Notes under the pieces: model-generated
What the model was told of the DNA's origin: nothing
Seen by the model: the letters and a program-made list of their open reading frames with translations, nothing else
Database searches by the model: none
Origin: Chloracidobacterium sp.
GTDB taxonomy: Bacteria > Acidobacteriota > Blastocatellia > Chloracidobacteriales > Chloracidobacteriaceae
DNA length: 64,000 nucleotides
Direction of reading: 5' to 3'
Assembly (NCBI GenBank): GCA_025057975.1
Contig: JANWUV010000011.1
Span: forward strand, 65,555 to 129,554
Position numbers and translations under genes: made by a program
Shown here: positions 14,972 through 63,916 of the stretch, in pieces
How the letters are laid out: each line of letters starts with the position of its first letter
How positions within the stretch are numbered: position 1 is the stretch's first letter

Positions 14972-16252
14972 TTAGGCGTAGATGCCGCGCATTTTGGTTT
15001 CGTACGCCACGCGGTCAATGGCCAACATGTAAGCCGCCGTCCGCATGTTGACCTTGTGCTTCTCGGCGTAGCTCAACACATCGTTGAAGCTCGAAACCAT
15101 CGTGTCCTGTAGGCGCTCGTTGACGAAGTCTTCTTTCCAGAAGAAGCCCATGCGGTTTTGTACCCACTCAAAATAGGAAACCGTCACACCGCCAGCGTTG
15201 GCCAGAATGTCCGGGATGACGAAAACGCCTTTGCGTTCGAGTACTTCGTCCGCCGCCGCCGTCGTTGGGCCATTGGCGCCTTCACACAGAATGCGGCATT
15301 TAATGCGCTCGACGTTCTGGGTCGTAATTTGATTTTCTGTCGCCGCCGGTATCAGTACTTCACAGTCGAGTTCGAGCAGTTCGGCGTTGGTGATGAGTTC
15401 ACCGCCGCCAAAGCCTTCAAAGGTTTTGTGCTTGCGTAGGTGCGCCAGCGCCGCCGGGATGTCGAGGCCGTTGGGGTTATAGAGGCCGTGCCGAATTTCC
15501 GAAATGCCGATGACCTTGAAACCGGCTTCGTGCAGCAAGGTGGCCCCAATGCCTCCAACATTACCCGCGCCTTGGACGACGACGCGCGTTTCCTGAGGCT
15601 TGAGACCGAACTTCTTACACGCCTCCTGCGTGACGAAAAGCAGCCCGCGACCAGTCGCCTCCCGTCGCCCCCGCGAGCCGCCGAGTTCAACTGGTTTGCC
15701 GGTGACAACCGCGTTGACCGTATGCCGGGCATGCATGGAGTAGGTGTCCATGACCCACGCCATAATCTGTTCGTTGGTGTTCATGTCAGGCGCAGGTACG
15801 TCGCGTTCCGGACCGATGATGTCCAGAATCTCTGAGGTATAGCGCCGGGTGAGCCGCTCCAGCTCGGTTAGCGACATCTTTTGCGGGTCGCACACAATGC
15901 CGCCCTTGCCGCCGCCGTACGGAATGTTGACCACGGCGCACTTCCACGTCATCCATGCCGCCAGTGCGCGTATTTCATCCAGCGTTACATCAGGCGCGTA
16001 ACGAATGCCGCCTTTGGCCGGGCCACGGGCAAAGTTGTGTTGCACCCGGTAGCCGACAAAGACCTCATAGTGGCCGTCATCCATCAGGGTTGGGATGTAA
16101 ACGGTCATTTCGCGCGTCGGATGGCGCAGAATGCGGTAAATGTTCGGGTCTAAGTCGAGCAGCTTCGCCGCGTTGTCAAAACGCGACATCATAGACTCAA
16201 ATGGGTTGTCCTCTTTGAAACTGCGGGCGTCATCAACGAAGGCGTTGGGCAT
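14972..16252 (-). CDS. gdhA: Glutamate dehydrogenase (Glu/Leu/Phe/Val dehydrogenase family)
   Basis: [17 protein letters not shown] and VVQGAGNVG motifs. Start at the internal ATG (MPNAFVDD...) is preferred but uncertain. Confidence 0.9.
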
Positions 16253-16287
16253 GGCTGATTCCTCACGAAAGATGGCGTCGGGATGGT

Positions 16288-17142
16288 TCACAGATCGGAC
16301 CGCTCGGCTTCCGTGCCGTTGAGTGAGCCGCTGCGGAAGCCCTCAAGGTCCAAGGTAATGAAGGTAAACCCAAGCGGTTTGAGCGCCGCAACAAGGCGCG
16401 CAGCCATAGCTGGGTCAAGTGCGCGCGGCAGTTCCTCCGGTGCAATCTCAATGCGCGCTAACCGGTCATGATGACGCAGACGAACTTCACGGAACCCCAG
16501 CGCGCGCAGCGCCTCTTCGCCCCGTTCAATCGTTGTCAGCTTGCCAATGGTCACTGGCTGTCCGTAGGGAATACGCGACGCCAGACACGGCGACGCTGGC
16601 TTGTCGGCGGTCGGCAGTCCCCAGTACCGCGACCGCTCCCGAATATCGGCCTTGGTGAAGCCAAACCGCGCTAGTGGACTGGCGACGCCCGCTTCGGCGG
16701 CGGCGCGGCGGCCGGGACGCACATCCTTCAGATCATCGGCGTTGGTTCCGTCGCATATGACGGTTGCGCCATACTGCGTCGCCAAGGCGCACAACCGTGT
16801 GAAGAGTTCCTGTTTGCAGAAATAGCACCGGTCGGGCGGATTGGCGGCGTAGGCGGGATTGTCAAGTTCGTGCGTGTCCAGAAAGACATGACGCAACCTA
16901 TAGCGCGTCACAAACTGCGTTACGGCAGATTGCTCGGTAGCTGCGAGACTTGGACTTCGCCCAGTCACAGTTAGCGCGCGCTCGCCAAGCTCTTGTCCGG
17001 CGACAAAGGCCAGATAACTACTGTCCACACCGCCCGAAAATGCGATCAGCACGGAGCGCGCCTCACGCAGCCAGGCGCGCAAAGCGTTTTCCTTGTCGGC
17101 GGCTGTGGTTGAAAGCGGCAGAGATGACAAATTGGGGTCCAC
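16288..17142 (-). CDS. larE: PP-loop ATP-utilising enzyme, LarE-like sulfur transferase family
   Basis: [17 protein letters not shown] is an SGGxDS PP-loop. Size of about 280 aa and a conserved Cys-containing CYFCK segment fit the family. Confidence 0.65.
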
Positions 17143-34426: not shown

Positions 34427-35374
<948 letters not shown>

Positions 35375-39978: not shown

Positions 39979-40008
39979 GCGGCGTTGTCAACGTGTTGAC
40001 AACGCCGC
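39979..40008. promoter_or_regulatory. Perfect inverted repeat (14-bp arms, 2-nt spacer); candidate parS-like centromere or bidirectional hairpin
   Basis: gcggcgttgtcaac-gt-gttgacaacgccgc, checked by hand reverse-complementing. Lies 13 nt downstream of the parB stop. No flanking T-tract on either strand. Confidence 0.5.
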
Positions 40009-40020
40009 CTGACGACGCGC

Positions 40021-40869
40021 CTATTCCGCTTCGTTCAGGCGGTCAAGCGCGGCTTCCAGCGCCGCCCGGAGGTCGGCTCGCGTCGTCGCCGCCCGCCGCG
40101 CCGTCGTCGTCACTATCACCCGCAGCGTCGCCTGCCGACCCGGTACACGGTAGGTGAACTGAAACACCCGCCCGCCAACTTCGCCTAATGACCCAGCGGC
40201 AGACGAAGGCGCAGGGGTAACAGGCGGCGCCATAACTAACCGCTTTGCGGCCGTTAGGCGGCGCGCGGGCGCCAGCGCTAACAAATCCAACAGCATTCGC
40301 AGGGAACAGTTCGGATGCGTCGCGCACACGTCCAGAACTTCGTCGCCCAGATCAAGCACGCGCAGCCACATCGCTAGCGCCGATCGCTTCATCCCCAACG
40401 CTTCGGCCGCCTCCGCCTGCGTCCGAAAACGGCGTGCGACTGCGCCCAGCGCCCGCGCCTTCTCAACCGGATGGAGGTCTTCGCGCTGAAGGTTTTCCAC
40501 CAGCGCCAACACCTGCAAATCGGCGTCCGAAACGTCGCGCCGCAGGATAACCGGCGCGTGCGTCAAGCCGGCCGCCGCCGCCGCCCGCCATCGGCGATGA
40601 CCGGCAATGAGTGTCACTCGGCCATCTGGCTCGCGCCGTCCGATGAGCGGTTGCAAGACGCCGTGCCGCCGGATGGAGTCGGTTAGGTCACGCAGCGCCT
40701 CGGCGTCAAACGTCCGGCGTGGTTGGTAGGGATTTTCCCGCAAATCCGCGAGCGGCGTTTCAACGACGCCGGCGTCCGTGCCGAGTTCGGCCGCCACATG
40801 GTCGGCCAGCGCCGACAATCGCGCCGGCGACAACGTCGGCGCGTCGGAAAAACGCTTGACCTTTGACAT
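40021..40869 (-). CDS. parB: ParB/Spo0J-family partition protein
   Basis: LRENPYQPRRTFDAEALRDLTDSIRRHGVLQPLIGR...LIAGHRRWRAA (ParB box motifs), followed by an HTH region. Confidence 0.85.
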   Translation of the reverse strand: MSKVKRFSDAPTLSPARLSALADHVAAELGTDAGVVETPLADLRENPYQPRRTFDAEALRDLTDSIRRHGVLQPLIGRREPDGRVTLIAGHRRWRAAAAAGLTHAPVILRRDVSDADLQVLALVENLQREDLHPVEKARALGAVARRFRTQAEAAEALGMKRSALAMWLRVLDLGDEVLDVCATHPNCSLRMLLDLLALAPARRLTAAKRLVMAPPVTPAPSSAAGSLGEVGGRVFQFTYRVPGRQATLRVIVTTTARRAATTRADLRAALEAALDRLNEAE

Positions 40870-40888
40870 AAAACGCTCCTTTCCAGCC

Positions 40889-41677
40889 CTACCGCTCCCC
40901 TTCCACGCCAGCTAGCAGCGCCGCCGCCAGCGCCGCCACGTCCGCCGCCGCTGGACACTTCGGCGCATACCGCTGCAGCGGTTGACGGCGTGTTCCGGCC
41001 TCGGAAACAGCCACGTAGTCCCGAATCGGCGCAAACACCTGGTAGCCGAACGACGGACAGATGCGCCGCGTCAACTCCTCATAATGGTGGCGGTGCAGCA
41101 CCAGACGCGGATTGTAAAGCGTCGGCACGACGCCCAGCACGCGCAGCGGCGTAAGACGCATGTTTTTCCGCCGTCGCTGCGCCTTGACGATTTCAAGCTG
41201 CACCTCGGCGAAGCTCTCAACGGACTTCGCCTCGGTCTGCACTGGCGCGAGCAGCGCATCCGCTGCCAGCAAAATCTGGAGCGTGATTTCGGAAATCTTC
41301 GGCGGACAGTCGAACAACACCCAGTCATAGTCGGTTAGGTGCGTTTCCGCTGCCGCCAGCAGCCGCGCCGGATCGCTTTGCTGCATGAGCGCCAGTTCGT
41401 CACCGATAAGAAACCGGTTCGCCAACCCCACGGTCAGGTCAAAGGACGTCGGATGGACGACCGGCGGCCTGTCGTCGCCGTCGCATATGGTCGCCCAGAA
41501 GGTGTCGGCGCGCGGTCGGACAGCGGGCTCTAGCCCCAGAAAACTCCCCAACGTCCCCTGCGGATCGGCGTCAATGAGCAACACGCGCCGGCCGCGCATT
41601 GCTAGTTCATACCCCAGATCGCGCGTCAGCGAGGTTTTGCCGACGCCGCCTGACTGATTGAACACCGCCAATCGCAT
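40889..41677 (-). CDS. parA: ParA-family partition ATPase
   Basis: MRLAVFNQSGGVGKTSLTRDLGYELA..VLLIDADPQG (deviant Walker A). Its start overlaps the upstream stop by 1 nt (TGATG). Confidence 0.85.
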   Translation of the reverse strand: MRLAVFNQSGGVGKTSLTRDLGYELAMRGRRVLLIDADPQGTLGSFLGLEPAVRPRADTFWATICDGDDRPPVVHPTSFDLTVGLANRFLIGDELALMQQSDPARLLAAAETHLTDYDWVLFDCPPKISEITLQILLAADALLAPVQTEAKSVESFAEVQLEIVKAQRRRKNMRLTPLRVLGVVPTLYNPRLVLHRHHYEELTRRICPSFGYQVFAPIRDYVAVSEAGTRRQPLQRYAPKCPAAADVAALAAALLAGVEGER

Positions 41678-42714
41678 CAGCCCCACCACTGTTCCACCGG
41701 ATCAGTCGTCGTTAGGACGCGCGCCCCGGCCGCTTGAAACTCGGCTAACGCCGCCTCGGCCGCGTCAGTGAAATCCGCGCCGGGCGCGACGACCGGTGCC
41801 ATGGCGTCCCGCAGCAGGACAATCCGGTGCGCTAAGTATGGATTGCGTTCCCGAACGAAAGCCAGTAGATCGGCAACGCTCGCTGCTACGCAGTGACTCG
41901 ACGCCAACCCGGCGACCAAGACCGCGTCTGCTGTTAGCAACCGCTCCAGCAACGCCATATTGCGCGTCGCGCGCGGCAGCGGCCGTCCGTCCCAACTTGT
42001 CGCCACCTCTGGCGCAAACACCGAGTAGTGTTCTGTCAGGGGGCTGTCGCCCTTGAGTTCCGGCGCGTTCGCCGCGCCGCGCGCAAAAGCGTGGAAGAGG
42101 CGCGCGTCGTCCAGCGCTCCGGCCAGCCGGTGTCCAGCCGTTCCTATCAGACAGTGATAGGGCCAGATGTGTAGCGCGTACTTGCCGGACGCCTCCAACC
42201 GCGTGCAATAGTCGGTGAATTGGTGAGTCAACCACTCGACCGTCACCCCCAGTTGCGCCGCCAGCGCCGGGTTAGGCCGGTAGCGACCGGCGCGGTAGTC
42301 TGCAGCCGTAATGGTTGTGTACGGCGCGACAAAATCCCCATCTTTGGTCAGATGCGCGCCGGGGAAAAACACCTGATGGGGTAGGTGGCTGTCAAGCGTA
42401 CAGGTAATCTCCGAAATGACGCCTAGGCGCCGGTAAATGAACTCCACCACGCGCCGCAGCGCATCCGTCCCGCCAGTTCCCGACCGGCCGGCAACGTAGA
42501 GCGCCCCCGACGGAAAGCAAAAGTCCACCTGCATATCAATGACGAGCAGGTGCGCACGGCGGGTGTCCGCAGCCGCCGGCGGCAATCGGTGGGTTTCGCG
42601 CCACCGGTCGGCGGCGGCGAAGAGCGCGTCCGGCCCGGCACCAAGGTAGTCAGCCTGCAGGGTCTGGAAGGCGCTGTAATGGGGCGGAAGCGGTAAGTCC
42701 GGCGCAACAGACAT
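41677..42714 (-). CDS. Isochorismatase-family cysteine hydrolase (nicotinamidase-like)
   Basis: AHLLVIDMQVDFCFPSGALYV and VLVAGLASSHCVAASV (catalytic Cys context). Start set at ATG 42714 (MSVAPDLPLP...); the upstream part of the track ORF is Arg/Ser-rich and overlaps the divergent kinase gene region. Confidence 0.65.
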   Translation of the reverse strand: MSVAPDLPLPPHYSAFQTLQADYLGAGPDALFAAADRWRETHRLPPAAADTRRAHLLVIDMQVDFCFPSGALYVAGRSGTGGTDALRRVVEFIYRRLGVISEITCTLDSHLPHQVFFPGAHLTKDGDFVAPYTTITAADYRAGRYRPNPALAAQLGVTVEWLTHQFTDYCTRLEASGKYALHIWPYHCLIGTAGHRLAGALDDARLFHAFARGAANAPELKGDSPLTEHYSVFAPEVATSWDGRPLPRATRNMALLERLLTADAVLVAGLASSHCVAASVADLLAFVRERNPYLAHRIVLLRDAMAPVVAPGADFTDAAEAALAEFQAAGARVLTTTDPVEQWWG

Positions 42715-49097: not shown

Positions 49098-50093
49098 CTA
49101 CTTCGCCGTCAAGGTCATCAACAGTTGGCGGCCATTGTAGAGCAGAAGCTGGTTGTCGCGCACTACAAACCGGTTGACCTTCGGCAGCGCACGATTGAAA
49201 CGCATTTCAAGCTTGCGAACGGCTTCGTCCAGACAAGCGCGCTTCGTACCGGCAAGCTGAAAAAACTTGATTCGGTCGCCGCGTATGTCGTAGCGCCCTG
49301 CAAAGCGATTACAGCCGTCAGAGCCGGTGACGCGCAGCGTGGAAGCGTCAAACTCAAGGAAGGGTTCGGCGGTGTTGACCGGCTTGCCTTCAAGCTTGGT
49401 GAGCGTCCAGCGGCGGCCGCTCAGCGTCGTGTCAGTAGGTGGTTCAGGGTTGGCCGGCGGTTCAGATCCCGCGTCCGGGCAGGCCGGACGGTGCCGGACG
49501 TTCGTCGCCACAACTACCGGCAAGTCGTCGTGGTGGAGCGTATAGGTCACAACCGCCCGCCGTGATGGACAGCAAGCCGGGTCGCCGGCGGCGTAGCGGT
49601 CAAACTCAGCGACAAGTTCGGTGGGCGTCACCAGCGTGACATCCGCCAGTGCGCCGTCGGTTCGGGCGTTCATTGCGACCGGCGCGAGCGTTCCAGCGTA
49701 ACGACCGTCCCAATAAACGAACGCCTGGTAGCCCACCGGACGACACATGCCGTCCCAGCCCGTTGTCGCCAGGATCACCTGCGTTGCGTCAAACGTTTGC
49801 GCCGCGCCGAAAAGCTTCCACCCACGTTTGACAAGTGTCCGCTCAGCGGCGGTGACAGGACGGCGCAGGCGCTCATTGCAAACGGCGGGGGCAGCGATGT
49901 CCGGAATGTCAGCGGGTTCCGGCGGAGAGGGCGTCCGACCGTCCGGGCGGTTCCAGTTCGTCAGGGGCTGATCCAGCCAAAGGCCGGTGACCGCTGTGGC
50001 GCGGCGACCGGCCGCCTCCGGCGTTGACAGGGCGAAAACGATGACGGCGGCGACGAAGAGCAAACCCGCCATGCGCAACATGGCAACACGCAT
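49098..50093 (-). CDS. Secreted protein with C-terminal META (HslJ-like) domain
   Basis: RWTLTKLEGKPV...LEFDASTLRVTGSDGCNRFAGRYDIRGDRIKF..AGTKRAC is the META signature. Start at ATG 50093 (MRVAMLRMAGLLFVAAVIVFAL). The upstream part of the track ORF is Arg-rich and overlaps another gene. Confidence 0.7.
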   Translation of the reverse strand: MRVAMLRMAGLLFVAAVIVFALSTPEAAGRRATAVTGLWLDQPLTNWNRPDGRTPSPPEPADIPDIAAPAVCNERLRRPVTAAERTLVKRGWKLFGAAQTFDATQVILATTGWDGMCRPVGYQAFVYWDGRYAGTLAPVAMNARTDGALADVTLVTPTELVAEFDRYAAGDPACCPSRRAVVTYTLHHDDLPVVVATNVRHRPACPDAGSEPPANPEPPTDTTLSGRRWTLTKLEGKPVNTAEPFLEFDASTLRVTGSDGCNRFAGRYDIRGDRIKFFQLAGTKRACLDEAVRKLEMRFNRALPKVNRFVVRDNQLLLYNGRQLLMTLTAK

Positions 50094-56951: not shown

Positions 56952-58637
56952 TCAGTCGGACGCGGCTGGCGCGCCCACCAGCGCGTCCAGCGTGACGCCG
57001 CGCGCCGCGCACCACACGGCGAACGGCTCAACCTGCGCTTCAGCCAGTTTGCGTCCGACCAGCCGCCGGAGATGTTCTTCCAACACCTCCGGCTCCCAGC
57101 GGGCGTAAATCTTCCGTCGGTCGGACGCTAAAAGCTCTTCACGCTCTTTGGCTACTAGCTCCTTGAGTTCACTTTTCTTGAGCTGCGCCAGCAGGGCTTC
57201 GCCGGTTCGTTCGAGGTGGTCAAGGTAGCCAAGCTCCAACTCCTGCAGCTGCTCCTGCGAAGGCACAGGAACAAGCAAACCGGTGTTGGCCGACGTTCCC
57301 CCCTTGTTCACCGCTTCCGACGCCTCAGCGGGCTTCTCAGCGCGTGCACGGGTGGTTTTGGCAGTGGACGGCGCTCGCTTTTTTGGCGGCAGTTTGGGGA
57401 GCGCCTCCCGGCCGTTGACGATCAGCGTGTAGAGCAACCCGCCCGGATTGGCGAGATTGCGCCGGCGGTACTGCCGATCGAAGATGGCGATGGCCTGCTC
57501 GATGGTCTCCAGCTTACCCTGCAACTCGAAGCTCTCCACAAGCTTTTTCGCCACCGGCCCAATCATCCCGCGCGCCATCAGTTGGCCTTCCAAGTGGAGC
57601 GCCACGTCGCGGACGGCGCGCTCCTCCGGTGAGAGGTCGTCGTCACACATAGCGTCCATCACGTCGTAGATGGGCAGCGCCATTTGCTGGATGCGCGCGC
57701 CAAACTCCAGATTCTTGCGGAAGTGGATGGTTTCCTCCGTGAGCGTCCACTCGACCAAGAACTGCTTGGACACCAACTCGTTCAGGGCTGGCTCCAAACG
57801 TTGCATAATCTGCGAGACATAGTTCAGCTCGCGCGACATCCCGACATGCTCAAAGGCTAGCTTGCGGACGTTGATAACGAAGTAGTCGCCGCTGCCGAAC
57901 TTTTTGTCGAGGTAGCGAAACAGCCGCTTGGCGATGGGCGAGGTGAGGTTGAAGTAAAAATCCGCGTCGAGTTTCTTGAAAAGCTTCTCACTGAGGCTCT
58001 GCGCGACGCGGTCGCTCCACATAACGTAACTTTTCGCCCCGGTGCGCTTGCCAGCGCTTTCGTCAAAAATCTTGAACTCCTGAATAATGCTCATCCCTAC
58101 ATCCACCAACCGGCCGCTGTGGCGGTCCACGTAGGCGTTTTTGGCCTCAATCCGCACCGCCGCCAGCTTGCGCAGCGAGCTTTCAAGCCGCTCATAATGC
58201 TTGGCGTTCATCGGCCAGCCCAGCCGCCGAATTAGGTCGTACCGGCTGAAGTAGACCTTCTTCTGTGCGCCCTGTTCATAAGACAGTTCCATCAGCGCCA
58301 CATACACGTCTTCGTCGGTGGTGCTGGGCAGTCCCTCAATCGGGTGGGGCATGACTGTCCACACGCGCTGGATTTCGCGCCCATTGGAGGTGATGTGTTC
58401 AGTGAACGTCAGGTAGTTCTTGCTTTTCTGAGCGCGTTTGTCGAGAACGGCGATGGGAAACACCGCAAGGTTGAACTCATCTTGGGCAATGCGGATCACC
58501 TCTGGCTTATCCGCATCGTCGTCGCTTCCTCCGGCCGCCGCCGGCAGCGCAGCCGGAGATGCTGCGCTAGTCGTAGCCGCGGTGGCGGTTGGGGCGTCGG
58601 TCTCAAGCTTTTTGCGGCGGCTGCGCTTTTCCGACAT
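56952..58637 (-). CDS. repA: Plasmid-type replication initiator (Replication initiator protein A / RPA-like)
   Basis: 561 aa. After a low-complexity N-terminus comes IRIAQDEFNLAVFPIAVLDKRAQKS.NYLTF, which resembles the RPA-family N-terminal motif. ggaggag SD. An iteron array and an AT-rich tract lie immediately upstream. Confidence 0.65.
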   Translation of the reverse strand: MSEKRSRRKKLETDAPTATAATTSAASPAALPAAAGGSDDDADKPEVIRIAQDEFNLAVFPIAVLDKRAQKSKNYLTFTEHITSNGREIQRVWTVMPHPIEGLPSTTDEDVYVALMELSYEQGAQKKVYFSRYDLIRRLGWPMNAKHYERLESSLRKLAAVRIEAKNAYVDRHSGRLVDVGMSIIQEFKIFDESAGKRTGAKSYVMWSDRVAQSLSEKLFKKLDADFYFNLTSPIAKRLFRYLDKKFGSGDYFVINVRKLAFEHVGMSRELNYVSQIMQRLEPALNELVSKQFLVEWTLTEETIHFRKNLEFGARIQQMALPIYDVMDAMCDDDLSPEERAVRDVALHLEGQLMARGMIGPVAKKLVESFELQGKLETIEQAIAIFDRQYRRRNLANPGGLLYTLIVNGREALPKLPPKKRAPSTAKTTRARAEKPAEASEAVNKGGTSANTGLLVPVPSQEQLQELELGYLDHLERTGEALLAQLKKSELKELVAKEREELLASDRRKIYARWEPEVLEEHLRRLVGRKLAEAQVEPFAVWCAARGVTLDALVGAPAASD

Positions 58638-58740
58638 GGCTACCCTCCTCCCATTGCCCAGCGCCCACGCCTACCAGCGGTGGATGGCACCGAACTCTTA
58701 TGGCGGCGCGGGCCGGAAAATGTGCCAAATAGATTTTTGA

Positions 58741-58830
58741 CACTTAATTATCATCATCATCATCAATTATCATTAATTTAGTTAACAGCGCCAATAAGTT
58801 CTTTATTTTCAATGATTTACAGGCGAATTT
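58741..58830. other. AT-rich tract (candidate DNA-unwinding element) containing (TCA)5
   Basis: Hand count gives 20 G+C in the 80 nt 58741-58820 (25%), versus about 62% in surrounding lines. tcatcatcatcatca at 58751-58765. Confidence 0.6.
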
Positions 58831-59010
58831 TTACGTCAAAGGTCAATACCTATGAAACCTTGACCTTTGGCATAAAACCAAAAAAACGGAGATTTTTATG
58901 TCAAAGGTCAATAACTTTTAAGTAGTTTTTATGTCAAAGGTCAATAGCCGATGCTTCCTAGGAGGGGTTTTTTACGTCAAAGGTCAATAGTCTTATGTCA
59001 AAGGTCAATA
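58831..59010 (+). repeat. Iteron cluster 1: five direct copies and one degenerate inverted copy of TTAYGTCAARGGTCAATA
   Basis: Direct copies start at 58831, 58896, 58929, 58972 and 58993. The inverted copy (ccttgacctttggcataa) is at 58858-58875. Confidence 0.9.
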
Positions 59011-59118
59011 GCAGGCGGGCTGGTTCACCTAAAGCTGACGCAAAAACCCAAAAATTGCCCCAAACACAAGATATTGTGGTGTTGCGCCTTCCGTCTGGTG
59101 GTCGAAAGCGGGGTAGTT

Positions 59119-59244
59119 TTTACGTCAAAGGTCAATGTCCTTATGTCAAGGGTCAATAGTTTTACGTCAAGGGTCAATAGTTTTATGTCAAGGGTCAATA
59201 GTTTTTATGTCAAAGGTCAATAGTGTTTATGTCAAAGGTCAATA
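59119..59244 (+). repeat. Iteron cluster 2: six direct copies at 21-22 bp spacing
   Basis: Copies start at 59119, 59141, 59162, 59183, 59205 and 59227. Three of them carry the CAAGGGTCAA variant. Confidence 0.95.
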
Positions 59245-59365
59245 GGCACAAGATGTAGGGCAGAGGGGCGAAGTGGCGACGTAAAGCAACGTCTAGCTGT
59301 GGCTTACAATTGGGCGCTTCAAGGAGTACATTGAGTCGGGCGGCGGGCGGGCGAGCGCGGCGGTT

Positions 59366-59402
59366 TTACGTCAAAGGTCAATATTTATGTCAAAGGTCAA
59401 TA
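59366..59402 (+). repeat. Iteron cluster 3: two direct copies
   Basis: Copies start at 59366 and 59385 (19 bp apart), 78 bp upstream of the next gene. Confidence 0.9.
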
Positions 59403-59479
59403 GGCGGCGACGCAAGCTGTAGCTGCACGCCAAACGGCAAAGGGGCGAATCAGCTCCGGGCAATGGAAGGGAGAGGAGT

Positions 59480-60289
59480 ATGCAGGTACGGGCCTTGCCG
59501 AGCTTGACAGACCCAAGCAGCCAGTTACTGATCAGCTTCGTGGTCAACGACCGAGTGGCAATTGACGCCGGGGCGTTGGCCTTTCATCTGAATGGTGAAG
59601 CGTTGCTGGCGGTGCAGGACATTGTGCTGACGCATGTCCATTTGGACCACATCGCTTCACTGCCGTTTATATTCTCGGAGTTGTTCACCGAGATTCAGAC
59701 GCCGGTGCGCATCCACGCCACGGCGGCCGATATTGAGCGCTTGCGGCGGCACATTTTCAACGATGTTATCTGGCCTGACTTCACGCGCCTGCGGAATGCG
59801 CACGGCGAGCTGCTGACCTTCAAACCCTTTGTCTGGCGGAAGCCGTTTGAGGTCGCCGGGTTGCGCCTGACGGCGATTCCCGTGACACATACGGTGGAAA
59901 CGGCTGGGATTATCATCGAAGACGCCGATGGGGTGTGCGTCGCCTTTACGTCGGACACCGGTGTAACTGACGAGTTCTGGGCCACGCTCAACGCCTTGCC
60001 GCGTCTGGACGCCGTCTTTGTGGATGTCGCCTTCGACAATGCCAATGAGCCGATTGCCAACGCTTCGCGCCATCTTTCTCCGCGCCTGCTGGTCGGCGAG
60101 TTGGCAAAGCTCCGGCGTCCGACACAAGTGCTGGCGGTGAATCTGAAACCCTTTTGTCGTGAGCGGGTGATGGAGGAAGTCAAGGCGTTGAACCTTCCGA
60201 CGGTGCAAGTGGCGGCGCTTGATGTGAACTACACTTGGTCCCCGCTGTCGCCGGCCGCCGAGGTGGTCGCTGTTGAGGGAGGCGCATAG
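59480..60289 (+). CDS. MBL-fold class II 3',5'-cyclic-nucleotide phosphodiesterase-like protein
   Basis: IVLTHVHLDHIASLPF approximates the class II PDE signature HxHLDH. Further MBL histidine/aspartate positions are present (PVTHTV, FTSDTG). gagaggag SD. Confidence 0.65.
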   Translation: MQVRALPSLTDPSSQLLISFVVNDRVAIDAGALAFHLNGEALLAVQDIVLTHVHLDHIASLPFIFSELFTEIQTPVRIHATAADIERLRRHIFNDVIWPDFTRLRNAHGELLTFKPFVWRKPFEVAGLRLTAIPVTHTVETAGIIIEDADGVCVAFTSDTGVTDEFWATLNALPRLDAVFVDVAFDNANEPIANASRHLSPRLLVGELAKLRRPTQVLAVNLKPFCRERVMEEVKALNLPTVQVAALDVNYTWSPLSPAAEVVAVEGGA

Positions 60290-60296
60290 GAAACTT

Positions 60297-62387
60297 ATGG
60301 AGTACCCAACCATCATCGTCAGTGGGCCAACCACCAAGCGGCGTGTGGACGAGTGTCGGAAGTTCCCGCTGATTATTGGGCGAGCAACAAGCAGCGACGT
60401 GATCGTGCTGGATGAGCGCGCTTCCCGGTTGCACGCCAAGATTGAGGCGCTGCCGGACGGCGGTTATCAGTTGGTGGACTTAAGGAGCCGCAACGGTACG
60501 CGACTCAACAACGTGTTGGTGACGGCGGCGGTGCGCCTGAAGGACGGCGATACAATCTCCATTGGCAGCCACCAGTTGGTTTTTCGGCTGCCGGCAAAAG
60601 GCGTTGACGTACGCTATGACGACAAGCCGCTGACGGGAACAGTGAAGCTTCAGAAAGCGGCGGAGTTGTTGGCACTCGGGCGTTCCGGCGAGGTCATGGG
60701 GAAGCCCTCAAGCGGTTTTCGGGCCGTCAAATCACCCGGTTCGGAGCAGGTAGCCGTCAGCGCCGAGCAACTCCACCTGCTAGAGAAACGCAGTCGGATG
60801 CTGAGCCTGTTTTATGACTTCAACAGGCAGGTGGCGCGCCAATTCGACATTCGCGCGATTTACGCAGAGGTGGCGCGGCAGGTCTTCGAGATCTCCAACG
60901 CCGGGCGGGTGCTTATCGGCAAGCTGAGCGCAGACGACACGCCGACGATTGAATGGGGGCAATATCGAGACGACCGGATGCGCCAGGCCTACGCGGCGAT
61001 GCCCATCAACCGAACGGTGATGCGCAAAGTCATGCAAGAGGGCGTCTCATTGTTGAGTCGGGATATGAGCAACGTCACGGGGACAGCGATTCTAGGCGTA
61101 CAATCGCTGATGTGCGTTCCGATGCTGGGCCAGGAAGAGGCGCCGCTGGGCGTCATCTACGCCGATAGTTTGCACTTGGACGGCTTTACTGAGGACGACG
61201 TGGACTACCTAACGGGTTTGGCTTCGACCGTGGCGCTGACACTAGAAAACATTATGGCGCACGAACGCCTGCTGCATGAGGCGGAGGCGCGCGCCGCATA
61301 CCGCCGGTTTCTTCCGCCGCATGTTGTGGATCAAATCATCCGTGACCCGGACAGCCTCCAGCTAGGCGGTGTCAACCAAGTCGTCACCACGATGTTCGCT
61401 GACATTCGGGGGTTCACCACCCTGTCCGAGCGCAAATCGCCGCAGGAAATTGTCGCCATCCTGAACAACTACTTTGAGCGGGCGGCAGCCGTGATTTTCC
61501 GGTACGGCGGCTCACTCGACAAATTCATCGGCGACGGCATCATGGCGCTGTTTGGCGCGCCTCAACCCGGCGAACGTGATCCGGTCAATGCCATCCAAGC
61601 GGCGATCGCCTTGCAGGAGGTCATCCGGGAAGTCAACGCCGATCTCAGCGAACAGGGCCTAGACTTGCAGTTGAGCATCGGCGTCGGCGTCAATACCGGC
61701 GAAGTGACGGCTGGTTACATTGGCTCTAAGCTGCGGACGGACTACACCGTCATCGGCGACGCCGTGAATCTAGCGGCTCGCTTAGAAGCCAACGCCAAGC
61801 CGGGAGAAATTTTGGTGGGAGAAACCACGGTGTGGTGTTTGCGCGACCTGATACAGCGAGGCGTTAAGTTTGGCGACGACGAGCGTGAATTCGCTTTTGT
61901 TCCCTTAGGCGGGATGAAGGTCAAGGGCAAGCTTAACGAAGTCAACGTCTACCGGATTCTGTGGGGCGACGAGTTGGCGGCGGCAGGTGCCTCGCAGGCG
62001 ATGTTTTTCCGCAGCGCGGCGAACAACAACCCGGTGTTTTCTGAGGTGTTTTCTGAACCTGAGACGCTTTTGCGCCGCCAGTTGGATTGGGCGTCCAAGC
62101 GACGTGAACCGCGTCGTAAGCTGGCGGTGGCTGTGACAGTGACCGGCCGAGACCTCCATGGCAACGCCTTTGAGCAGGAAACCGAGACAGTGGACGTGAG
62201 CCGTTCCGGGGCGTGCATTCGCTTGGCGCGGCAGGTTCCCGTCCCATCGTCGCTCTCAATGACCGTCCCGGCGCACAACTGGCGCGGTGAAGCTATTGTT
62301 CGCACCGTCGCCCGTGACGCCCAAGGTTATCTGGCCGGGATTGAAATTATCGGTCTGGGACCAGACTGGTACTCTGAGTCAAAGTAA
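60297..62387 (+). CDS. FHA-GAF-class III adenylate/guanylate cyclase-PilZ multidomain protein
   Basis: FHA: IIGRATSSDVIVLDERASRLHAKIE..LVDLRSRNGTRLN. A GAF-like middle region follows. Cyclase: TTMFADIRGFTTLSE, KFIGDGIMALFGAP, IGDAVNLAARLE. C-terminal PilZ motifs RREPR (RxxxR) and DVSRSG (DxSxxG), starting at nt 62100. Confidence 0.85.
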   Translation: MEYPTIIVSGPTTKRRVDECRKFPLIIGRATSSDVIVLDERASRLHAKIEALPDGGYQLVDLRSRNGTRLNNVLVTAAVRLKDGDTISIGSHQLVFRLPAKGVDVRYDDKPLTGTVKLQKAAELLALGRSGEVMGKPSSGFRAVKSPGSEQVAVSAEQLHLLEKRSRMLSLFYDFNRQVARQFDIRAIYAEVARQVFEISNAGRVLIGKLSADDTPTIEWGQYRDDRMRQAYAAMPINRTVMRKVMQEGVSLLSRDMSNVTGTAILGVQSLMCVPMLGQEEAPLGVIYADSLHLDGFTEDDVDYLTGLASTVALTLENIMAHERLLHEAEARAAYRRFLPPHVVDQIIRDPDSLQLGGVNQVVTTMFADIRGFTTLSERKSPQEIVAILNNYFERAAAVIFRYGGSLDKFIGDGIMALFGAPQPGERDPVNAIQAAIALQEVIREVNADLSEQGLDLQLSIGVGVNTGEVTAGYIGSKLRTDYTVIGDAVNLAARLEANAKPGEILVGETTVWCLRDLIQRGVKFGDDEREFAFVPLGGMKVKGKLNEVNVYRILWGDELAAAGASQAMFFRSAANNNPVFSEVFSEPETLLRRQLDWASKRREPRRKLAVAVTVTGRDLHGNAFEQETETVDVSRSGACIRLARQVPVPSSLSMTVPAHNWRGEAIVRTVARDAQGYLAGIEIIGLGPDWYSESK

Positions 62388-62536
62388 GCCCGGCGAGAGA
62401 AAGCCTGCCTTGTAATCTTGTTCTCATCCGCGTCGGTCGCCGAGGCGTCCGATGACGGCGAAGCTGTGGCAGCCGGAAATGGGGCGCCATTTCAGACGCT
62501 ATGACGACATTGAGTCCAGCGGAATCGTTGTAGTTG

Positions 62537-63916
62537 ATGGAGCGATCGCTGATGCGGGGTAGAACCCGCCTGACGCTCACCGAGGCTGCCGCCTTGACCG
62601 GACTCTCGCTGGATGAAGCCGAAAACGCTCTCCGTGAGCTGCTAATGCGCTATGACTGTCGCCTTCAGGTGACAGAAAATGGCGATATCATTTACGACTT
62701 TGGTTCACGTCTACATCGCCGTAATGAAAAGTCATGGCGTGAGTATTTAGATGAAATACTTAGTTTCCTTTGGAAAGCCTTTGTCTTATTTTTCAAAATC
62801 TGGATCACTGTCACGCTAGTTGTTTATTTTCTCATCTTTCTTTCAATTCTCATTACCGCCATTGTTGGTATTTTTTCTAGCAGCAAAGATCGTCGCAGTT
62901 CACGGAACAGTCGGTCAAATATTGGCGACTTACTTACCAGATTGCTTCGGTTATTCATTACTATTTTTGAGTGGAAGACTGCAACGCCGAAGAAGCAGCA
63001 GCGAACTGACCGAAGGGGATATACTTATGCTGCCTACCAACCTCAGCCGGCATTGTTCCAAGAAGGGGTGGATAAAAAAGGTTTCATTGCTTCTGTTTAT
63101 GACTTTGTTTTTGGTCCGCCCCGTGTAACTCGTGATCCGCTTGAGAATCAGAGAGAAATTGCCGCCTTTTTGCGGCGCCACCGTGGCATTCTTGTTCCAA
63201 GCGACATTAAGGCGCTAACGGGATTGGTTTCTGATTCAGCAGCATTGTTATTTTCAGACTGTATCGGGCGATTTCACGGCGAGATTTGTGTTAGCGACCG
63301 CAAGATTATGTACGGCCGCTTTGACCGACTGCTGCGGACAACAACTGACAAGGACGACATAGAGGTTTTATACTATTGGGACGAATACGAGCCACCTTAC
63401 TTGTTGACAGGGAACACATTCGGTATGAATGTTCTGATTATTTTTCTTAATGGATTTAACCTAATCTTTTCATTAGTCATCATGTTCGGCAATTCAGAGA
63501 AGGAATTTTCCACTCTTTGGCTCGGCGTTGTTCCTTTTTTGTTTTCATTTATTTTTTTCACTGTGCCGCTGTTGCGTCTACCGGGTGTGCTGATCAATGA
63601 AGCGCGTCGTGTTGCTGAAAACCGGCGCAAGCGCGTTATGCAGGTGATTTTCGCCAGTCGCGGTTGCGCGCAAACGGCCGAGCAGATTGTGCAGGCGGTC
63701 AATGCGCCAGGAACGCTTGAGCCACTCTCCCAGAAAACCGTTGAGGATATTCTGGCGCGACTTGTACGAGACTTACCCGGTGAAATCCGAACCGATGGGC
63801 ATGGACGGGTGCTTTATGAGTTTCCGATAATTGCACTAGAGCTAGAGGAAGCTGAGCGGCTGCGGCGGCGGACGGTTGACCGTGACCTTGGTAGAGTTGT
63901 TTTTGATACGCACTGA
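62537..63916 (+). CDS. Hypothetical membrane protein with three wHTH-like soluble modules; low-GC core
   Basis: Modules of the form helix...G.I.Y.F: LTEAAALTGLSLDEAENALRELLMRYDCRLQVTENGDIIYDFG; EIAAFLRRHRGILVPSDIKALTGL...GEICVSDRKIMYGRF; AEQIVQAVN...ILARLVRDLPGEIRTDGHGRVLYEFP. Two hydrophobic blocks. No family recognised. Confidence 0.5.
   Translation: MERSLMRGRTRLTLTEAAALTGLSLDEAENALRELLMRYDCRLQVTENGDIIYDFGSRLHRRNEKSWREYLDEILSFLWKAFVLFFKIWITVTLVVYFLIFLSILITAIVGIFSSSKDRRSSRNSRSNIGDLLTRLLRLFITIFEWKTATPKKQQRTDRRGYTYAAYQPQPALFQEGVDKKGFIASVYDFVFGPPRVTRDPLENQREIAAFLRRHRGILVPSDIKALTGLVSDSAALLFSDCIGRFHGEICVSDRKIMYGRFDRLLRTTTDKDDIEVLYYWDEYEPPYLLTGNTFGMNVLIIFLNGFNLIFSLVIMFGNSEKEFSTLWLGVVPFLFSFIFFTVPLLRLPGVLINEARRVAENRRKRVMQVIFASRGCAQTAEQIVQAVNAPGTLEPLSQKTVEDILARLVRDLPGEIRTDGHGRVLYEFPIIALELEEAERLRRRTVDRDLGRVVFDTH

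Follow-up and report, generated by a model that had tools for sequence, protein, structure and literature searches.

We analysed a 64,000-nucleotide stretch (hereafter the window) of contig JANWUV010000011.1 from an uncultured lineage of Chloracidobacterium, and focus here on repA, a gene for a replication initiator, and on the short direct repeats (iterons) in the 842-bp intergenic region beside it (58638-59479). Gene and repeats together very probably represent the vegetative replication origin and initiator gene of the ~1-Mb second replicon (chromid, or 'chromosome 2') of a Chloracidobacterium species. The principal elements of the locus are the following.

56952..58637, minus strand: repA, 561-aa replication initiator, characterized by Pfam RPA/TrfA matches, an AlphaFold2 model, Foldseek and the ratio of nonsynonymous to synonymous substitution rates (dN/dS)
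58719..58830, strandless: AT-rich block of ~110 bp separating repA from iteron 1; A+T content 75-77%, the G+C content of the window being ~61%
58831..59010, plus strand: proximal iteron cluster, five direct 18-mers starting at 58831, 58896, 58929, 58972 and 58993
59120..59244, plus strand: middle iteron cluster, six tandem iterons starting at 59120, 59141, 59162, 59183, 59205 and 59227
59366..59402, plus strand: distal iteron cluster, two iterons starting at 59366 and 59385, 19 bp apart

The iteron array and the adjoining initiator gene

A pattern search of the window that tolerated up to three mismatches located 13 direct copies of the 18-mer TTAYGTCAARGGTCAATA on the plus strand between 58831 and 59402, twelve of them perfect and one with a single mismatch, as well as an inverted, degenerate copy with three mismatches on the minus strand (58858-58875). 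In dinucleotide-preserving shuffles of the window, matches to TTAYGTCAARGGTCAATA averaged 0.02, and none of 100 shuffles reached 15. Each unit contains the internal half-repeat GTCAA-NN-GTCAA. The arrays lie upstream of repA, whose start is 194 bp from iteron 1, and are directed away from the gene. Start-to-start intervals in the middle cluster are 21, 21, 21, 22 and 22 bp, and spacing outside this main cluster ranges from 19 to 65 bp; according to Tandem Repeats Finder and a repeat finder, the six-copy cluster has a period of 21-22 bp and the distal pair one of 19 bp. A reading of these repeats as clustered regularly interspaced short palindromic repeats (CRISPR) or as satellite DNA was ruled out, given the 3-4 bp between units, the lack of unique spacers and the co-variation of the repeats with the Rep gene.

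The repA open reading frame has a GGAGG ribosome-binding site and a conserved N-terminus. Measured against the curated Pfam gathering thresholds, RepA scores 52.0 bits with RPA (PF10134; cut-off 27) and 30.6 bits with TrfA (PF07042; cut-off 22); its 22.2 bits with Rep3_N fall under the cut-off of 22.4, and membership of the Rep3 type is thus not shown. A scan of NCBIfam returned no matching model for RepA, and a sequence search of the PDB gave insignificant matches only, none to RctB. The AlphaFold2 model, built from a 22-sequence alignment (mean predicted local distance difference test score, pLDDT, 71), predicts disorder for the N-terminal ~52 residues, a winged-helix pair (WH1-WH2) at residues ~60-310 and two helical modules (~337-408 and ~461-545) separated by a disordered basic linker. 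When this model was compared with the PDB by Foldseek, the top match was RctB domains 2-3 (5tbf_A; E=1.3e-9, template modelling score 0.63 on the target, 11-12% identity), followed by 9z55_C, a DNA co-crystal scaffold chain that we take to be RepE54 (E=1.9e-3). These two structural matches indicate that RepA is predicted to adopt the fold of iteron initiators. As judged from the profile scores and the model, RepA is a winged-helix Rep-family initiator of the RPA/TrfA family.

Residues 331-561 of RepA (window 56955-57647) hold the two confidently predicted helical modules and lack a match in Pfam, among PDB sequences and in Foldseek. Modelled separately (pLDDT 79), these C-terminal 231 residues gave nothing significant in a profile search of PDB sequences or in Foldseek. 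The second of the two modules does not occur in the plasmid homologues from PLSDB.

Scans at 40, 60 and 100 bp place the lowest duplex stability of the 64 kb in the AT-rich block that separates repA from the first iteron (-114.7 compared with a mean of -156.4 and a standard deviation of 8.0 kcal/mol, that is, ~5 standard deviations off the mean). Its core, ATTAACTAATTAATGATAATTGATGATGATGATGATAATTAA, is almost invariant across five species, and an AT-rich block occupies the matching position in most of the loci L001-L009 (orthologous and related loci are denoted here by L numbers). The block is a likely candidate for the DNA-unwinding element, and it probably contains the repA promoter as well.

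An earlier note, made from the letters of the window alone, had described thirteen direct copies and one degenerate inverted copy of the repeat, GTCAA-NN-GTCAA within each, and three clusters (5+1, 6 and 2 copies) with a main spacing of 21-22 bp upstream of a RepA-like gene. The pattern search returned the same counts, the half-repeats can be read in every copy and the intervals agree; the grouping is real and is kept across Chloracidobacterium species. For the RepA-like gene, the search against PF10134 that the note had proposed gave a score well above its cut-off, with TrfA passing too, and similarity to the Rep family, the absence of which the note had named as a point against itself, emerged from both the Pfam profiles and the Foldseek match to RctB. 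The note's classification of the locus as a classical iteron origin for theta replication is supported by the direct repeats, the adjacent winged-helix Rep gene and the adjacent AT-rich block.

Conservation across relatives and probable placement on the second replicon

The proteins most similar to RepA are those of Chloracidobacterium, and orthologues with 86-88% identity are encoded on the complete second replicons of three species of the genus.

CP072633.1: C. thermophilum, 1,051,657 bp, RepA orthologue at ~1,032.5 kb
CP072649.1: C. validum, 1,000,103 bp, RepA orthologue at 99-100 kb
CP072645.1 and CP072641.1: C. aggregatum, 1.10 and 1.11 Mb, RepA orthologues

The 88%-identical protein cluster comprises C. 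thermophilum strain B (AEP13818 / WP_014101556), C. aggregatum and strain D, and the 86%-identical cluster includes C. validum; AEP13818 / WP_014101556 bears the name 'plasmid replication initiator TrfA' at NCBI and 'Replication initiator protein A' in UniRef. The iteron map of the complete replicons is nearly superimposable on that of the window: the proximal copies number 5-6, with a single inverted copy besides, the tandem copies exactly six and the distal copies 1-2. An equivalent set of 5-6 proximal copies is present in all orthologous loci of Chloracidobacterium, the middle cluster numbers exactly six in the window, L001-L003, L162, L163 and L165-L167, and the distal cluster keeps its relative position with one or two copies. 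The iteron core also recurs upstream of repA in nine further loci from species-representative genomes (RepA 66-89% identical), which hold 12-22 copies each in several clusters, always in the orientation opposite to repA.

In an alignment of the intergenic region from five species, 84% of columns are invariant within iterons compared with 34% elsewhere, and pairwise identity to the window is 90-94% in iterons versus 55-60% in the other intergenic columns. Comparison of repA with four orthologues yields a synonymous divergence (dS) of ~1.0-1.3, which is saturated, and dN/dS of 0.06-0.10. By these sequence measures, purifying selection acts strongly on both RepA and its presumed binding sites, contrary to what a decaying relic would show. 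The iterons of more distant RepA clades are related to those of the window but altered.

Chloracidobacterium clade: TATTGACCTTTGACATAA
Clade with 35-39% identity: TATTAACAGTTGAAATAA
Clade with 41% identity: CTGACACTTGG...
Other clades: unrelated repeats with a 22-bp period

Co-evolution of initiator and site would be expected to produce such a change of iteron sequence with RepA clade.

Large contigs (up to 399 kb) of many metagenome-assembled genomes (MAGs) of Blastocatellia (L010-L026 and many of L029-L080) also encode RepA relatives that have iterons of their own and, in most cases, parAB alongside. Single MAGs sometimes hold two RepA paralogues (for example L010/L022, L011/L024, L023/L026 and L013/L021). 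The spread of this family, with its clade-specific iterons, over so many MAG contigs suggests that secondary replicons are common in the class. Seven contigs that carry the acidobacterial RepA/iteron module (L004, L005, L008, L010, L012, L016 and L017) belong to MAGs labelled Actinomycetota or 'uncultured Clostridia'; the name of one such contig reads 'WN_Acidobacteria_scaffold', and these bins are probably mislabelled or contaminated.

The genus Chloracidobacterium has two circular chromosomes of ~2.7 and 1.0 Mb and a whole-genome G+C content of 59.9-62.7% (PMC8245765), and nine of ten Chloracidobacterium genomes have been classed as chromid-carrying (PMC12456017). A survey of secondary replicons reported a plasmid-like Rep on the second replicon of C. 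thermophilum and, for secondary replicons that carry DnaA, listed Paracoccus and Prevotella only (bioRxiv 10.1101/264945); chromids with iteron origins are a recognized class (review, PMC6090056). Under the chromid definition of Harrison et al. 2010, plasmid-type replication and partition are represented in the window by RepA with its iterons and by ParA/ParB. The G+C content of the window, ~0.61, lies inside the whole-genome range of the genus and may be close to that of the main chromosome; tsaE and gdhA may represent the core genes that the definition calls for. The earlier note had taken the company of tsaE, gdhA, an FNR, cytochromes and large receptors in the same 64 kb as the mark of a chromid or second chromosome. 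All of these genes were located, and the assignment is borne out by the RepA orthologues on complete second replicons of 1.0-1.1 Mb and by the published two-chromosome genus (PMC8245765, PMC12456017).

12026-12535: tsaE (PF02367, 109 bits)
14972-16291: gdhA
34427-35359: FNR-like NAD_binding_1 protein

The window encodes c-type cytochromes and large outer-membrane barrels in addition. On the minus strand at 19968-23348, a full-length FHIPEP protein (FlhA/SctV-type export gate, 681 bits) is encoded beside an FHA/YscD-like protein, and no further flagellar or type III genes were noted among the open reading frames scanned.

Accessory elements of the probable origin, partition genes and gene neighbourhood

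Further elements of the intergenic region, and the partition genes located elsewhere in the window, are listed below.

58831..58875, strandless: head-to-head iteron pair, formed by iteron 1 (58831-58848, plus) and the inverted degenerate copy (58858-58875, minus) with a 9-bp spacer
59065..59074, plus strand: flanking motif copy 1, CACAAGATAT, within the imperfect palindrome CACAAGATATTGTG, flanking the six-iteron cluster
59247..59256, plus strand: flanking motif copy 2, CACAAGATGT, directly past the six-iteron cluster
59300..59336, strandless: conserved block outside the iterons, located between the middle and distal clusters and reading, in repA sense, CTCAA-GTAC-ACTTGAAG...GTAAGCC
40889..41689, minus strand: parA, partition ATPase (Pfam AAA_31, CbiA, ParA)
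40021..40869, minus strand: parB, partition protein (ParB_N and HTH_ParB domains)
39986..40001, strandless: candidate parS palindrome TGTCAACGTGTTGACA, 16 bp, ~20 bp past the parB stop, with extended arms at 39981-40006
40854..40871, minus strand: iteron-like 18-mer TTATGTCAAAGGTCAAGC, 16/18 matches, with a TTTT prefix; its ATG is the parB start codon (MSKVK)

In five species, the head-to-head pair keeps both arms and the length of its 9-bp spacer, the sequence of which is variable. A sigma-70-like -35 hexamer, TTGACG, lies inside iteron 1 on the repA strand, in a putative promoter that matches the consensus at 9/12 positions only. The arrangement fits a candidate operator for autorepression by RepA. 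The flanking motif CACAAGATRT occurs twice in the 64 kb (expected 0.04), in both cases here, at 59065 and 59247; it is kept in the complete replicons of C. thermophilum, C. validum and C. aggregatum, and among the MAG loci there is one exact copy in each of L001-L003 and none in L004-L009. It may be a site for a host factor. The block at 59300-59336 holds invariant columns in the five-species alignment, the surrounding spacer having diverged. An Rfam scan of the whole window found no RNA family, and there is thus no evidence for antisense-RNA copy control by a known family.

The partition genes lie 15-17 kb from repA, and their products have the ParA and ParB domains of a type Ia parABS system. 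Orthologues of ParB with 69-70% identity are encoded on the 0.99-1.1 Mb replicons of the Chloracidobacterium isolates. In distant RepA clades, parB-parA is found directly upstream of repA and divergent from it, and the ParB encoded beside repA in L010, L011 and L026 is 50-51% identical to that of the window. Replication and partition genes thus appear to derive from one ancestral plasmid-type module that was later split. The canonical parS, TGTTTCACGTGAAACA, has a single match in the window, with three mismatches, far from parAB and at chance level. A different, 16-bp palindrome, TGTCAACGYGTTGACA, lies past parB: TGTCAACGTGTTGACA is present as a single copy in the window, TGTCAACGCGTTGACA occupies the corresponding place in six related loci (L082-L085, L168 and L169), and all Chloracidobacterium-type parAB loci examined have TGTCAAC(G/A)(C/T)GTTGACA at a distance of 15-30 bp past the parB stop. 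The lack of a T-run on either strand rules out an intrinsic terminator, and we regard the palindrome as a likely candidate for a non-canonical parS of the second replicon. The iteron-like copy at the start of parB, TTATGTCAAAGGTCAAGC, which the earlier note does not list, recurs unchanged in L168 and L169, whose ParB is 81-82% identical and in which the neighbouring codons are just as conserved; the Yellowstone clade L082-L085 lacks it. This copy may be an extra RepA site that links replication with partition, or a coding coincidence.

The window and all isolates share one order of genes around repA. One side has an FHA-GAF adenylate/guanylate cyclase and a class-II phosphodiesterase-like metallo-beta-lactamase protein, followed by ~0.85-0.9 kb of intergenic DNA, of which the window has 842 bp; the other has a hybrid histidine kinase, a ferritin-like protein, a TPR protein and multihaem cytochromes. 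The genes for the FHA-GAF-cyclase-PilZ protein and the class-II phosphodiesterase / Apyc1-like metallo-beta-lactamase protein (59480-62387) adjoin the origin in most of L001-L009 and L162-L167, with the cyclase only in L007 and L008, and sit where related RepA clades have parAB.

Several features of the surroundings vary between species. In Chloracidobacterium sp. CP2_5A, another MAG and C. validum (L002 ~1763-1780, L003 ~1914-1931 and L163 ~5808), a gene for a PPDK_N-domain protein ~4 kb upstream of repA contains a perfect or one-mismatch iteron, oriented as the origin iterons are; the window has a different gene at this place. In C. thermophilum (L162 1-5700) and C. aggregatum (L165/L166 1-5500), a CRISPR-Cas locus with genes for Cas3, a Cas4-Cas1 fusion and Cas2, joined in C. 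aggregatum by IS605 OrfB/TnpB, lies 4-10 kb from the origin, and a D12-class adenine methyltransferase is encoded ~3-4 kb beyond repA; neither is found at the corresponding positions of the window. At 62534-63916 on the plus strand, DNA of low G+C content (~0.51 compared with ~0.61) encodes a 460-aa protein without a Pfam match. This protein is kept in L001 only (76% identity), other genes take its place in the isolates, and the origin is thus bordered here by a variable region.

Proposed origin function, alternatives and relation to known systems

With the exception of DnaA boxes, and with the autorepression operator as a candidate, the locus has the features of the iteron-origin class that can be tested in sequence. 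Support for an origin comes from the repeats, the family and predicted fold of the protein, the conservation and co-variation of both, the orthologues on complete replicons and the stability minimum of the AT-rich block. Its workings can be sketched by analogy with RK2, P1, F, pPS10 and Vibrio chromosome 2. RepA monomers would bind the 18-bp iterons, whose two GTCAA half-sites, 7 bp apart, would probably be contacted by one winged-helix domain each. Occupation of the five proximal iterons, the presumed origin-opening set beside the AT-rich block, would bend and stress the DNA such that the block at 58719-58830 melts, allowing the host helicase and replisome to be loaded for theta replication. 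RepA dimers would probably bind iteron 1 and the inverted copy and so repress the repA promoter. The six tandem iterons of the middle cluster are presumably a copy-number control set, or else a second part of the origin; with the two distal iterons, they would probably limit initiation through titration of RepA and through RepA-mediated pairing ('handcuffing') with the origin iterons. ParA, ParB and the parS-like palindrome ~15 kb away would segregate the replicon copies.

Several observations weigh against this interpretation. No DnaA box (TTATCCACA, up to one mismatch) was found in the intergenic origin (58638-59479), and the sole nearby match at this stringency is TTATCCGCA at 58507, inside repA; this absence is weak evidence, since Acidobacteriota lack an established consensus for the DnaA box. 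The matches to consensus that underlie the promoter and operator assignments are weak. GC skew, a check that the earlier note had proposed, switches sign near the iterons, from -0.011 on the left of the origin to +0.082 on its right, yet the cumulative minimum of the window falls at 49,122, and among five orthologous loci the sign of the skew in the 10-kb flanks is inconsistent, which makes the test uninformative at this scale. The window moreover belongs to a contig of an uncultured lineage, so that orthology and synteny are the grounds for placing it on a ~1-Mb replicon.

The ambiguous skew, together with the loss of parAB from beside repA that sets these loci apart from related clades, could be accommodated if the repA-iteron module were a relic or an auxiliary element, for instance an anciently integrated plasmid, and initiation took place elsewhere, such as at an unrecognized DnaA-dependent origin. 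A relic should decay, however, whereas here the iterons remain 90-94% identical while repA has reached a dS of ~1.0-1.3 under strong purifying selection, and copy number and cluster layout are kept across species; C. thermophilum, furthermore, is not among the DnaA-carrying secondary replicons listed in the survey (10.1101/264945). We consider a relic highly improbable. Another view accepts a functional origin and holds that the replicon is a dispensable megaplasmid in this lineage, tsaE, gdhA and others being redundant copies. It can draw on the length of the source contig (at most 130 kb) and on the one in ten Chloracidobacterium genomes that is not flagged as chromid-carrying (PMC12456017), but gene order near repA and parAB agrees with the 1.0-1.1 Mb replicons of all isolates, the G+C content of ~61% is within the genus range of 59.9-62.7% (PMC8245765), and the genes are metabolic and envelope genes instead of conjugation functions or accessory cargo. 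A dispensable megaplasmid is therefore very unlikely. Finally, the arrays lie between divergent genes, and the inverted pair and the -35-like hexamer inside iteron 1 suggest regulation; one might accordingly see in them mainly transcriptional operators for repA or the neighbouring cyclase/phosphodiesterase genes, with no origin present. Thirteen sites at two-helical-turn spacing beside the least stable duplex and a Rep-family gene are nevertheless what marks an origin, the same arrays accompany homologous Reps on real plasmids, and the iteron model itself includes regulation, which leaves a purely operator role scarcely credible. An origin of the second replicon thus remains by far the most probable reading.

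A more far-reaching extension of the origin reading, which we regard as speculative and unlikely, is that RepA of Chloracidobacterium and related Blastocatellia is a 'domesticated' initiator comparable with Vibrio RctB, whose C-terminal modules, the genus-specific CACAAGATRT sites and the extra-origin iterons (at the parB start, in the PPDK_N gene of other species and possibly on chromosome 1) would tie the start of second-replicon replication to partition or to the replication cycle of the main chromosome. If true, this coupling system would be an independently evolved crtS-type checkpoint in Acidobacteriota.

Mechanistic understanding of multipartite genomes is limited to a few Proteobacteria, chiefly Vibrio, Burkholderia and repABC replicons, and among Acidobacteriota, Chloracidobacterium alone is a chlorophototrophic genus. 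Earlier work has already described the replicon as chromosome 2 or a chromid, annotations already give the gene as a TrfA/RPA initiator, and the architecture is that of textbooks; the mechanism itself is not new. A literature search, which did not cover the original C. thermophilum genome paper, found no description of the iterons or origin of this replicon and none that joins iterons with Acidobacteria, and the iteron layout thus appears to be undescribed. The locus defines the origin of the second replicon in terms of an initiator, 13 predicted binding sites and candidates for the unwinding element, operator and parS with ParAB. It could serve to anchor replicon coordinates, to recognize MAG contigs that belong to the chromid and, for hot-spring metagenomes, to interpret growth rates estimated from read depth. 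No genetic tools are known for Chloracidobacterium, and the locus is a possible starting point for a shuttle vector.

Among characterized systems, ori2/RctB of Vibrio cholerae is likewise an iteron-type chromid origin with an adjacent initiator gene, grouped iterons and a dedicated parAB. RctB domains 2-3 are the best structural match of the RepA model, and both proteins have C-terminal parts past the winged-helix pair. However, the PDB sequence search detected no similarity to RctB, the iterons of the window are 18-mers instead of 12-mers and are devoid of GATC, and no 39-mer-like sites, DnaA box or crtS equivalent were identified in the window. Membership of the RctB family was rejected on these grounds, the similarity being structural only (11-12% identity); judging from the model, the resemblance is that of a fold common to all iteron initiators. 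The P1 oriR/RepA (incC, incA) and F ori2/RepE (incB, incC) systems share with the window, where both are candidate features, separate origin and control groups of iterons and repeats that overlap the rep promoter for autorepression; 9z55_C, taken as RepE54, extends this likeness of F to a significant structural match. The control iterons of P1 and F are located downstream of rep, whereas all three groups of the window lie upstream, on one side.

Plasmids of the RPA family (PF10134), such as Frigoriglobus tundricola pPL17-1, Rubrobacter radiotolerans plasmid 2 and the Deinococcus megaplasmids, represent the best Pfam family match and have clustered iterons at 22-23 bp ahead of rep (seven copies in pPL17-1 and eleven at 23 bp in R. 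radiotolerans plasmid 2), with parAB adjacent in many related loci. They differ in that their iteron sequences are unrelated, their size is 25-430 kb and the PLSDB matches cover RepA residues ~50-406 at 22-33% identity, the last helical module being absent; the window origin, for its part, has lost the adjacent parAB. RK2/RP4, with oriV and TrfA, differs in having trfA far from oriV and DnaA boxes in oriV, compared with no box at up to one mismatch in the window origin, and the RepA of the window is longer (561 aa, ~230 extra C-terminal residues) and belongs to a replicon of ~1 Mb with housekeeping genes. The likeness to RK2 nonetheless extends from the protein, with RepA above the Pfam TrfA threshold, to the DNA: 17-18-bp iterons at ~22-bp spacing in several clusters (5+3+1 in RK2), and an AT-rich region beside the origin cluster that is followed by G+C-rich DNA. 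The RK2 iteron itself, TGACACTTGAGGGGC, resembles the TGAC-NN-TTGA core of the window and of the L010 clade.

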